Below, piece by piece: positions 40,530 to 42,783 of a DNA stretch of 57,553 bases. A program made the position numbers and the translations under genes. Numbering within the stretch: the first letter of the stretch is position 1; the number at the start of each line of letters is the position of its first letter. The stretch is from a plasmid, in sequence record NZ_CP045973.1; one strand, written 5' to 3'. The notes under the pieces are model-generated. The model searched no databases. It saw only the letters and a program-made list of their open reading frames with translations, and was not told the origin of the DNA.

Positions 40530-40671
40530 ATAAGAAACGAAGCTATTTTCGTTTCTTTTTTTGTGCAGAATAATAAGTAAAAATACAATATTCCTGTAGA
40601 CAACTATCGTTGTTTATGATGTGATATAAATATAGACAACGATAGTTGCCTTGAATAAAGGAGGAATCGGT

Positions 40672-40899
40672 ATGTTTTATAAAAATGTAGTATCAGGAGC
40701 TATTTTAACGGAAAAAGAATATGCGGAACTAGTGAAACGAGATGCGGAAAACCTTTGGGAACTATTGGATGAACAAGAAAAAGAAGATTTTGGAAGTATT
40801 GATAATTATGAAAAACATTTGAATGAGGCATCTACTCCTGACTCTGACTTTATATTAGTTAATGCGCAGGGAGAGAAATATATACATGGTGAATGGTAA
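40672..40899 (+). CDS. hypothetical small protein
   Basis: AAGGAGGAAT RBS. Confidence 0.4.
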   Translation: MFYKNVVSGAILTEKEYAELVKRDAENLWELLDEQEKEDFGSIDNYEKHLNEASTPDSDFILVNAQGEKYIHGEW

Positions 40900-41325
40900 A
40901 TGATAAAAGTTAAATTTGATCTTTTGCAAATGTATTTTGAAGATAACGATATTACTGTTTATGCCATTTCTAAAGTTACTGGAATAAGTGCACAAGCATT
41001 AAATAATTTCAAAGCTCGTTCTTTCACTGGTGGGGAACGTGTGACAAATCGAATCACAGGGTTACATGTACAAAAGATTGCAGAAGCCTTAGCAAAAAAT
41101 CCCGGTAAAGTATTCAACGACCTCATTTACTTAGAGAATGAGGTCATGCTTTCCTTAGAAGAACTAAAAGAGAACGCAAAAAATTGGCGAATGAATGGGG
41201 ATAGCCCAGAAGACGTTACTACCTCTATATATCCCATTATTGAAGAACAGTGGGAAAATAAAGTCATTCAATCCTTTTTGAAAGCGTATATGAAAGAGTT
41301 TATCAAAGATGAATGGAGGCTGTAA
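40900..41325 (+). CDS. hypothetical protein
   Basis: Start abuts previous stop. Confidence 0.4.
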   Translation: MIKVKFDLLQMYFEDNDITVYAISKVTGISAQALNNFKARSFTGGERVTNRITGLHVQKIAEALAKNPGKVFNDLIYLENEVMLSLEELKENAKNWRMNGDSPEDVTTSIYPIIEEQWENKVIQSFLKAYMKEFIKDEWRL

Positions 41326-41328
41326 TCT

Positions 41329-42051
41329 ATGGTTAGAGCGATTAGGGTACGTATACATCAAGATTCAGCTAATTACAAAAAGAAAATGTCTTTCCAATTA
41401 AAAGAATCGTTTCCGCTACCACCGTTTTCGACAGTAATCGGGATGGTACATGTAGCGTGCGGATTTGACAGCTATCATGAAATGGACATAAGCGTGCAAG
41501 GAAACTACTTTAATACATTTAATGACTTGTATACACGGTATGAATTTGGAAATAAAAAATTTGAAAAGGGAAGGCACCATATAAATGCAGGTGGCTTAGG
41601 AGTTACACGAGGCGTTGCGACTGTAAACCTATTAAATAATATCGATTTGCTTATTCATATTATTCCAAAAAAAGAGGAAGATTTTGAACTTATTTTAAAT
41701 AGTTTACGAAGAATGCCCACACGTTTTTTATCATTAGGAAGACACGAAGACTTAATAACCATCAACGAAGTAGCACAAACAGAGATTGTTTCAAAAAAAC
41801 TGCAGTTTGATCGTATAACCGAATTTGGTGGTTATGTACCTTATGAGCAGGGAATGGATCTAAATTTAGGAAGAACGTTATTTGTTTTAAATAAGAACTA
41901 CACGCTAGTTAATAAAGGAACTGAAAAAAAACCACGGATACATAGAGTATTTGAAGAAAAACGAGCACTATTTTTTTCAAAAGAAAACATTGTGCCTAAG
42001 GGTACACAATTATTACTAGATAGTGAGAACAACTTCGTATTTCCATTTTAA
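41329..42051 (+). CDS. orphan Cas5-like RAMP protein (tentative)
   Basis: N-terminus '[41 protein letters not shown]' aligns with Cas5 signature 'GDYAHFRK..TTSS.LTFSFPPPTTIRGIIGA'; length 240 aa as Cas5. Confidence 0.4.
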
Positions 42052-42066
42052 AAGGGGGTTGATGAT

Positions 42067-42783
42067 TTGGCTCTTGAACCGGGTATTAAATGGAACAAAC
42101 TTACTGTCTTAAAAAAAGCTAGTGAGAGAAGTAAAAGCGGTGCAACTTTATATCTTTGTCAGTGTGATTGTGGCAACACCTGTAAGGTAAACGGTACAAA
42201 ACTAACGAGCGGACATACAAAGAGTTGCGGGTGTCTAATAAAAGATACAGCGGCAAAAAAATTTGAAAGGTTTATTGGAAAGAAATACGGGCAGCTAACG
42301 ATCATCAAAGATTCAAGGAAAAGGACATCTAGGGGTCAGCGTATTGTTCTTTGCCAGTGTGACTGTGGCAATTTTGCTGAAGTTATATTTTCAAAATTGA
42401 GTAGTGGCCATACAAAAACTTGTGGGTGTAAAGAAGTAGAACGCATTAAAAATTTATCTAAGTTGATCACAAATGAGGATCGCGTAAAAGCGGTCGATAC
42501 GCTAAAAAAACATCATATTCTTATTGAAAAAACAAAAATAAATATGATCAAACCCGATAAAAAAATATTAACGTCTAACAAAAGTGGCGTTACTGGTGTT
42601 TGTTATGATAAAAACAGGAAAAAATGGGTAAGTCAAATTACTTTTCAAGGGAAAAATATTAATTTAGGTAGGTTTATCCGTTTTGAGGATGCTGTGAAAG
42701 CTAGAAAAAATGCGGAAGAAATTTATTTTAAACCAATTTTAAAAAAATATGAAAATAGAGGCGGTAGAAAAAATGAAAAATAA
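42067..42783 (+). CDS. protein with two CxC-x-CxxC zinc-ribbon repeats and C-terminal AP2-like DNA-binding domain
   Basis: Duplicated 'LCQCDCGN...KL(T/S)SGHTK(S/T)CGC' and 'SGVTGVCYDKNRKKWVSQITFQGKNINLGRFIRFEDAVKARKNAEEIY' (AP2/HNH-associated). Confidence 0.5.
   Translation: MALEPGIKWNKLTVLKKASERSKSGATLYLCQCDCGNTCKVNGTKLTSGHTKSCGCLIKDTAAKKFERFIGKKYGQLTIIKDSRKRTSRGQRIVLCQCDCGNFAEVIFSKLSSGHTKTCGCKEVERIKNLSKLITNEDRVKAVDTLKKHHILIEKTKINMIKPDKKILTSNKSGVTGVCYDKNRKKWVSQITFQGKNINLGRFIRFEDAVKARKNAEEIYFKPILKKYENRGGRKNEK

Follow-up and report, generated by a model that had tools for sequence, protein, structure and literature searches.

Why should a plasmid carry a gene for a Cas5-like protein when neither a CRISPR array nor any further cas gene accompanies it? 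The question is raised by a 57,553-nucleotide stretch of DNA from sequence record NZ_CP045973.1 (the whole of which is called the window here), which is a Listeria plasmid and in which a 240-residue Cas5-like protein is encoded directly upstream of a 238-residue protein with zinc ribbons and an AP2 domain. We analyzed this locus and conclude, with a probability of roughly three in four, that positions 40597-42783 form a type I-B anti-CRISPR (acr) operon of Listeria plasmids of the pLM1-2cUG1/pLM33 group. Judged from their sequences, its four products would be a small acidic protein of the AcrIB6 family, an AcrIB7-like helix-turn-helix (HTH) protein, a Cas5b derivative of the AcrIB3 kind and a member of the CasPR family. 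A preliminary description of the DNA had placed an orphan pair, the Cas5-like gene and its AP2 neighbor, in the interval 40651-42783. Both open reading frames (ORFs) are present where they had been located, but two further genes of the same operon (40672-40899 and 40900-41325) had been overlooked in that interval.

The 240-residue protein is homologous to type I-B Cas5b over its full length, and its structural model has the Cas5 fold. The N-terminal signature on which Cas5 had been proposed proved to be real, as TIGR02593 (CRISPR_cas5) scored 42.0 bits against a cut-off of 17.8. The more specific Cas5b model TIGR01895 aligned over the full length (residues 4-233) with 74.2 bits, which is under its equivalog cut-off of 96.7, and the Cas5b model of PADLOC agreed (1.3e-38). 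When 5.8 billion proteins were searched with phmmer, hundreds of Cas5b sequences were matched over 99% of the length, at 40-50% identity and with E-values of 1e-65 to 1e-51; the cluster of the plasmid protein holds 74 member sequences. A sequence search of the PDB gave nothing useful. The AlphaFold2 model (predicted local distance difference test, pLDDT, 93.1; predicted template modeling score, pTM, 0.87) found its best Foldseek matches in the PDB among chains of Cascade and other effector complexes of types I-B, I-E, I-C, I-A and I-F; the lengths of these chains are as expected for Cas5. The 12 highest-ranked matches include three Cas5-HNH Cascade entries, and almost every one of the 50 listed is a CRISPR effector or Cas entry. 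Neither of the two outcomes that the preliminary description had named as refuting it, a lack of any Cas5/RAMP profile match and a predicted fold of another kind, was thus observed, and the product is a real Cas5-fold RAMP protein.

The orphan status of the gene was likewise borne out. No other cas gene was found by profile scans of the window or in the PGAP annotations of near-identical plasmids, and neither TRF nor a search for spaced direct repeats detected anything like a CRISPR array or mini-array in the window. A search with the Listeria I-B repeat GTTTTAACTACTTATTATGAAATGTAAAT, allowing up to 9 mismatches, returned one window match with 8 mismatches, which did not exceed what shuffled sequence gave; a solitary repeat or RNA anti-CRISPR was rejected on the ground of this chance-level match. 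When the window was compared with the 34 spacers of an L. monocytogenes I-B array (contig L002), only chance matches of at most 15 nt were seen. True Cas5b genes of the comparison loci L002-L007 are found in a cas6-cas8b-cas7-cas5-cas3 operon with an array, to which the window has no equivalent. Contig L002 itself is GenBank record OR846720.1, named 'Listeria phage LM 4-11-1' and flagged UNVERIFIED_ORG. It appears to hold a complete chromosomal type I-B locus, with five ORFs of the sizes of cas6, cas8b, cas7, cas5 and cas3 and a 36-repeat array, and is probably host rather than phage DNA. The 'phage' Cas5 proteins of LM 4-11-1 and LM 4-14-1 were rejected as phage-borne orphans because both records carry such a complete chromosomal locus.

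A precedent for a Cas5 homolog outside CRISPR loci is AcrIB3, which was described in a study that screened 62 L. seeligeri strains (Katz, Sawyer et al., Nature 2024; bioRxiv 10.1101/2023.06.24.545427). This Listeria protein inhibits type I-B immunity, co-immunoprecipitates with Cas6/Cascade and stops the engagement of target DNA; native Cas5 overexpressed from a plasmid had no effect on immunity (10.1101/2023.06.24.545427). According to the summary of that work in a 2026 review (PMC13131331), AcrIB3 lacks an 18-residue hook that Cas5 needs for Cas8b binding, has a new (neomorphic) 6-residue loop that is predicted to contact Cas7, and loses its activity if the hook is restored or the loop is deleted. 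Using tblastn, we found that AcrIB3 matches window positions 41332-42045 with 40% identity over 236 of 237 residues (E 3e-59). All 18 hook columns are absent from AcrIB3 and from an orphan Cas5 of L. booriae (P0019). In the plasmid protein 14 of the 18 are gone, through a deletion between residue 177 and N178, and GMDL is kept. AcrIB3 and P0019 also have the 6-residue insertion, as SPQKDK and SPTRKK, respectively, and a Cas5-like protein (P0246) encoded on a 1.8-kb contig from the Sequence Read Archive (SRA), L012, stands between the two states: part of the hook is present, and the insert is 3 residues long.

The three hook-less proteins also share substitutions. At positions that are 91-100% invariant in 98 Cas5b sequences, the plasmid protein, AcrIB3 and P0019 have in common the derived states V14A, K63T/S, K74x, E100N/H, E132R/Q, Y133F, P134L, R139H and W208F, which include residues A14, N100, F133, L134, H139 and F208 of the plasmid protein. 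Neighbor-joining (NJ) bootstraps of 61 sequences, with a single AcrIB3, united the three in 181 of 200 replicates. We take the plasmid protein to be a probable early branch of the AcrIB3 lineage. P0019 is encoded in a mobile-element cluster (~5500-9500 of L. booriae contigs L008-L010) with an HTH protein identical to adc06, an AcrIB8-like protein and 'HNH_repeat' proteins in place of CasPR; two promoters of this cluster have the palindrome TTCCGTAAT(T/A)ACGTAAT between -35 and -10.

The 238-residue neighbor contains two CxCxC...CxC modules (Cys31/33/35/54/56 and Cys96/98/100/119/121). Among 67 homologs these cysteines are mostly invariant, with C56, C96 and C121 conserved in at least 90%. The AP2 model PF00847 scored 23.2 bits, below its cut-off of 33.3, and the domain is supported by the alignment and by local structural matches. 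Residues 178-231 of the structural model (pLDDT 92.8) match the AP2 domain of Arabidopsis TEM1 locally (probability 0.97-1.0; root-mean-square deviation 3.1-6.0 Å); a whole-chain Foldseek search gave these local AP2 matches and none that was significant, all E-values being weak. The two zinc ribbons and the AP2 domain that had been reported are thus present. Of the further suggestion that this is an AP2 protein associated with HNH nucleases, the DNA-binding AP2 part stands, but the link to HNH does not, as a Pfam scan detected no HNH nuclease domain in the protein and its family is that of the CasPRs.

CasPRs are CapR zinc-ribbon plus AP2 proteins of acr loci (Sanderson et al., a 2026 preprint from the Meeske laboratory, from which the AcrIB3 study also came; 10.64898/2026.02.23.707548). 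Their binding site lies within cas8b (or cas9), in its 5′ part, and binding there stops transcription, with depletion of the downstream cas mRNAs and sparing of cas6 (10.64898/2026.02.23.707548). Binding at cas sites or lowered cas transcripts were shown for CasPRIB1, CasPRIB2 and homologs 1, 3 and 7, of which the clade-B homolog 7 lowers cas3 mRNA; CasPRIB2 is still active after deletion of its HTH region, and deletion of CapR or AP2 kills the activity (10.64898/2026.02.23.707548). We identified CasPRIB1 (AcrIB14) as candidate adc37 from the numbering of the mutated residues C33/35/37, C56/58, R138 and R149 and from the termini encoded by primers oES204/oES207, and CasPRIB2 (AcrIB12) as adc12 from translated primers and a gene block. 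The latter matches window positions 42088-42759 with 53% identity over 225 residues (E 1e-71), and adc37 is 38% identical to the 238-residue gene product. The CapR region is 60-63% identical to CasPRIB2 and to the tested homologs 6, 7 and 8 (63% for these homologs, within the N-terminal 112-116 residues), and Arg202 and Arg213 align with R138 and R149 of CasPRIB1. To judge by its sequence, the plasmid protein amounts to a CasPRIB2 that naturally lacks the tail. Absence of the HTH domains is no obstacle to this view, because CasPRIB2 without them stays active. An insertion of the adjacent IS3-family element that cut off the tail was considered and rejected, since the end of the element lies ~55 bp beyond the stop codon and a 231-residue Listeria homolog has the same short architecture. 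No counterpart of the 30-bp CasPRIB1 site GATTGGCTTATAAATTCTGGCATAACGGGA was found in the window, where the best match has 10 mismatches.

The two genes upstream point in the same direction. AcrIB6 matches window positions 40675-40878 with 39% identity in tblastn, and in BLASTP the 75-residue product aligns end to end with the validated 77-residue AcrIB6 (38% identity, 63% positives, E 9e-12). It also resembles the C-terminal half of adc09, which is AcrIB11, falls in PHROG 13861, and probably belongs to the AcrIB6 family. The 141-residue product has weak HTH Pfam matches at its N-terminus and is 43% identical to the 132-residue AcrIB7 over 47 residues (E 3e-11; 24% globally). The mechanisms of AcrIB6 and AcrIB7 are unpublished. 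No window homolog of AcrIB4, AcrIB5, AcrIB8, AcrIB9, AcrIIA1 or AcrIIC7 was found by tblastn. Searching the Table S2 sequences of Katz et al. against the window by tblastn, we found adc02/adc73, adc03 and adc04 to be 100% identical to the window ORFs 40651-40899, 38821-39486 and 38498-38824, respectively. That table describes these entries as 'located near acrIB3, adc37', and adc73 also as 'acrIB7' (10.1101/2023.06.24.545427); the present locus had accordingly been listed by its authors as an acr cluster that includes acrIB3. The kind of finding reported here is thus largely explained by the literature of 2023-2026, and the locus itself is in the candidate tables of those authors. Only adc03 of adc02, adc03, adc04 and adc73 was assayed, and it inhibited no CRISPR type (10.1101/2023.06.24.545427). 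The numbering of primers had suggested that adc03 and adc04 were AcrIB13 and AcrIB16, respectively; this was refuted when the primers were translated, which gave AcrIB13 as adc22, AcrIB16 as adc23, AcrIB15 as adc30 and AcrIB11 as adc09.

Table 1. Features of the acr operon and its surroundings, in window coordinates.
Feature	Position	Strand	Remarks
Adjoining co-oriented operon: adc04 (108 aa), adc03 (DUF2786/DUF7168, 221 aa), DUF3850/ASCH-like protein (125 aa)	38498..39882	+	Pfam; identity to adc sequences
Terminator-like hairpin with T-run	40532..40557	+	11-bp stem; ends the upstream unit; 5′ boundary of the acr operon
Promoter/operator region	40597..40651	+	Inverted repeats around an extended -10-like element
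AcrIB6-family gene, 75 aa (putative)	40672..40899	+	ATG start after AAAGGAGG; program-called ORF begins at TTG 40651
AcrIB7-like HTH protein, 141 aa	40900..41325	+	Candidate Acr and/or autorepressor of the anti-CRISPR-associated (Aca) type
Cas5b-derived, hook-less AcrIB3-like protein, 240 aa	41329..42051	+	Homology, fold, hook deletion
CasPR-family protein, 238 aa	42067..42783	+	Two CapR zinc ribbons and AP2; no HTH tail, no HNH
IS3-family element	42841..44062	-	3′ bound of the operon; imperfect terminal repeats, AGTTGAAACAGTTTTTA and its inverted partner

The intergenic gaps between the four genes are 0, 3 and 15 nt, and the ATG at 40672 has a good Shine-Dalgarno sequence upstream. In the promoter region, two inverted copies of TAGACAAC(T/G)AT(C/A)GTTG (40597-40613 and 40633-40649), a motif that occurs nowhere else in the window, enclose the extended -10-like element TGTGATATAAAT (40620-40631), and these repeats presumably act as an operator. 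Contig L012 encodes the same first three genes in the same order, with protein identities to the window of 43% (AcrIB6-like), 41% over 107 residues (HTH; E 2e-24) and 41% (P0246). Upstream of this syntenic operon there is a perfect palindrome with 13-bp arms and the shared half-site CAACTAT, which adjoins TGTGATATAAT and lies directly upstream of TTGTGATATAAT. No CasPR is encoded within the 1.8 kb of L012, where the downstream gene is visible for its first 30 residues only. Because L012 has a related palindrome and no CasPR within the contig, we infer that the HTH protein, rather than the CasPR, is the more likely to bind the operator and repress its own operon.

The activities that we propose for these proteins are drawn from published experiments on their homologs. 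What the present analysis itself shows is the homologies, the Cas5 fold, the deletion in the hook, the build of the operon, the conserved zinc-ligand and arginine residues and the orphan status. By analogy with AcrIB3, the Cas5-like protein most likely poisons Cascade. With its conserved core intact, this decoy would join crRNA (CRISPR RNA), Cas7 and Cas6 in the complex in place of Cas5, and, since it lacks the hook that holds Cas8b, the poisoned Cascade could not engage target DNA, productive positioning of Cas8b and DNA binding both being prevented. The CasPR, by the same kind of comparison, probably silences transcription of cas8b. Through its zinc ribbons and AP2 domain it would sit in the 5′ part of the host's cas8b coding sequence and block transcription of cas8b, cas7, cas5 and cas3, so that functional Cascade would not be replenished and less native Cas5 would compete with the decoy. 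Further inhibition may come from the AcrIB6-like and AcrIB7-like proteins, and the HTH protein probably binds the two inverted operator copies and thereby represses the promoter of its own operon. Sanderson et al. have argued that co-encoded CasPRs and conventional Acrs are complementary (10.64898/2026.02.23.707548).

Several observations weigh against this account, the first of which concern the Cas5-like protein and its descent. The plasmid protein has no 6-residue loop (its sequence there is NAGG-LG), like all true Cas5b, and it has kept four hook residues as well as GTEKKP, a segment that core AcrIB3 proteins have lost. Its identity to AcrIB3 (40%) does not exceed that to ordinary Cas5b (42-52%), and its highest identity, 50-52%, is to P0002-P0004, real Cas5b proteins from complete cas6-cas8b-cas7-cas5-cas3 operons. 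When the NJ sampling was made denser (60 sequences, with six core AcrIB3 clusters and P0246), the AcrIB3 core held at 87%, but the plasmid protein joined the AcrIB3 clade in only 86 of 200 replicates (~43%) and grouped with Cas5b of the L. fleischmannii type (Listeria sensu lato) in 47 of 200 (24%). The similarity to AcrIB7 is a thin link, limited to 47 residues, and our survey of the literature found no experiment on this Cas5-like ortholog. The protein might accordingly be a distinct hook-less exaptation of Cas5, one that arose independently of AcrIB3 or diverged earlier, and that would poison Cascade by loss of the hook without the Cas7-contacting loop or would be tuned to another host range, such as the second Listeria I-B lineage, which it resembles most; accompanied by a tail-less CasPR and an HTH autorepressor, it would still be an anti-CRISPR. 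We regard this as conceivable and on balance unlikely. At least eight identical or similar derived substitutions are common to the plasmid protein, AcrIB3 and P0019; the right-hand boundary of the deletion and the C-terminal FP[VF] ending are the same as in AcrIB3 and P0019, and the best NJ tree places the plasmid protein as sister to the AcrIB3 clade. P0246 looks like an intermediate not only in hook and loop but also in having the same flanking genes.

Other adverse points concern the CasPR. The L. monocytogenes cas8b site differs from the CasPRIB1 site at 7 of 30 positions, though it keeps the three GG pairs; two of eight tested CasPR homologs gave no type I-B inhibition (10.64898/2026.02.23.707548), and adc37 was negative in the first screen (10.1101/2023.06.24.545427). 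It might be argued that the AP2/zinc-ribbon protein is no cas repressor at all, but an Aca-like regulator of the acr genes, a protein that represses a different gene of the host or of a competitor, or the nuclease-less remnant of a homing endonuclease. The protein does match PHROG families labeled 'HNH endonuclease' through its repeat and AP2 modules, and AP2 proteins of acr loci were formerly taken as Aca-like and were negative for inhibition. CasPR specificities also diverge between types I-B and II-A, one of the eight homologs affecting neither, and many extra CasPR binding sites were detected by chromatin immunoprecipitation. We consider such a role doubtful. The protein is 53-63% identical to CasPRIB2 and to active clade-B homologs, with all required residues conserved, and it is co-encoded with three genes of type I-B Acr families. 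As to a regulatory role within the operon, the operator-like repeats upstream are AT-rich and without the GG pairs that CasPRIB1 needs, and a related palindrome occurs in L012, whose contig has no CasPR and cuts its downstream gene after 30 residues.

The account of a poisoned Cascade must also be set against the view that the Cas5-like protein serves as a spare, functional Cas5 or as a minimal RNA-binding module and, instead of inhibiting, assists a chromosomal type I-B system or the orphan RliB array. Its Cas5 core is conserved, its N-terminal domain scores above the TIGR02593 cut-off, the AcrIB3-specific loop is absent, and real Cas5b proteins of other Listeria species are 50-52% identical to it. 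Nevertheless, we find this improbable: 14 of the 18 hook columns are deleted, the Cas5b-invariant residues E100, W208, R139 and P134 are replaced, the Cas5b equivalog cut-off is not reached, the neighbors are Acr-family rather than cas genes, the plasmid has neither repeat nor array, and native Cas5 expressed from a plasmid leaves immunity unaffected. The preliminary description had offered a minimal RNA-binding module, a regulatory derivative or an anti-defense derivative. The first two find no support in a hook-less AcrIB3-like protein whose operon consists of Acr homologs, and the third is favored by that same loss of the hook in the company of AcrIB6, AcrIB7 and CasPR homologs. Lastly, although IS3 and Tn3 flanks on a mosaic plasmid might suggest a functionless, decaying remnant of a former plasmid cas operon, this is hardly credible for an intact ORF that is at least 99% identical in 21 plasmids of two species, has a fold predicted at high confidence and no cas fragments adjacent, and whose gene order recurs in L012, where the proteins are ~41% identical, and in a related arrangement on L. 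booriae elements, a sign of long-term selection.

Whether homologous plasmids carry the same pair was a check that the preliminary description had proposed, and they do. The 2.25-kb locus was found at 99% identity or more in 22 PLSDB records, 21 of which hold at least 97% of the query and 20 the full query. Those 21 are from L. monocytogenes or L. innocua, and include pLM1-2cUG1, NC_014255.1 (32 kb) and pCFSAN059932; in the remaining record, NC_014496.1 (L. grayi), 33 bp only were matched. These plasmids spread tolerance of cadmium, disinfectants and heat stress among Listeria of the food chain, and an operon able to disable the CRISPR type that is commonest in Listeria would help to explain how they move between strains. 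The Cas5-like ortholog is also of interest as a natural variant of the 'faulty subunit' in which the hook has been lost and the AcrIB3 loop was never gained, so that it offers a ready test of which of the two changes makes Cas5 inhibitory. Should the tentative idea of a loop-less decoy be true, a Cascade subunit would need only to lose its hook to become an inhibitor, and such conversions would recur. Annotation calls for caution. RefSeq labels the 240-residue gene 'cas5' (WP_003728517.1) and its neighbor 'AP2 domain-containing protein', and both the RefSeq designation 'CRISPR-associated protein Cas5' and the older 'implied in phage defense' are probably the opposite of the true role. A PGAP Gene Ontology term on 41329-42051 reads 'maintenance of CRISPR repeat elements', which is probably misleading for a hook-less orphan Cas5 in an acr operon.

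Several other parts of the plasmid deserve mention. The adc04-adc03-DUF3850 genes upstream of the acr operon are, on their sequences, putative acr-associated candidates; two 23-nt direct repeats (ACATxATCATATGTAAATGTxAT) at 38399-38467 lie around a promoter-like site upstream of this adc04-adc03-DUF3850/ASCH operon, which may counter a different defense. Between the two operons the window carries a homolog of the small RNA rli28 (Rfam RF01492; 40063-40248, minus strand), full-length at 118 bits against a gathering score of 45 and antisense to a program-called ORF; a 2010 plasmid paper reported rli28/rli50 homologs on other Listeria plasmid groups. An anti-phage SIR2-HerA pair is encoded at 23612-26669 (minus strand), with PADLOC E-values of 1.5e-154 for the 617-residue HerA and 4.7e-99 for the 403-residue SIR2, and the plasmid therefore carries a defense system besides its anti-CRISPR operon. 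A pair of genes for 588- and 246-residue proteins at 44535-47053 (plus strand), between IS3 and the resolvase, matched no Pfam, NCBIfam or PADLOC family apart from a weak hint of DUF4365 (E 0.029), and is possibly defense or anti-defense cargo.

Metal-related and repetitive elements were found as well. A NiCo (nickel/cobalt) riboswitch (RF02683; 60 bits; 20246-20354, plus strand) precedes a cation-translocating P-type ATPase gene at 20399-22366. A second P-type ATPase gene (27675-29855), with a multicopper oxidase gene downstream, has a perfect 51-bp tandem duplication at 27783-27884, which encodes a His-rich stretch at the N-terminus of its product. About 3.5 copies of a 33-35-bp repeat (7358-7478) lie upstream of the MobP2 relaxase region, and ~13 copies of AGATAAAA (57153-57262) near the end of the window, beside genes for ParA-like and primase-domain proteins; both sets are probably oriT or iteron-type elements.

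How, then, does the operon compare with systems that are already known? With type I-B Cas5b (TIGR01895/PF09704; L. monocytogenes and L. fleischmannii-type proteins), the Cas5-like protein shares the fold, the domain order, the N-terminal Cas5 motif and 42-52% identity over its whole length. It differs in being encoded outside a cas operon, in scoring under the equivalog cut-off, in the deletion of its hook and in the replacement of E100, R139, W208, P134 and Y133. Like AcrIB3, it is a full-length Cas5b homolog (237-240 residues) encoded by a Listeria mobile element away from any CRISPR locus; the hook that binds Cas8b is lost, the same derived residues stand at Cas5b-invariant positions, and an AcrIB7-like gene and a gene of the CasPR/adc37 family belong to the locus. 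At 40% identity, it departs from AcrIB3 in having no loop and in keeping 4 of the 18 hook residues and GTEKKP. The two upstream genes resemble, by homology but at low identity, the validated type I-B inhibitors AcrIB6 (38%), AcrIB11 (its C-terminal half) and AcrIB7 (43%, over 47 residues only). The plasmid CasPR agrees with CasPRIB2 and the CasPR family in its two CapR ribbons followed by AP2, in all functional cysteines and arginines, and in its position in an acr locus beside homologs of type I-B Acrs. In contrast to CasPRIB2, which is prophage-borne and ends in four C-terminal HTH domains, it is plasmid-borne and without them, and so resembles the engineered deletion that is still active.

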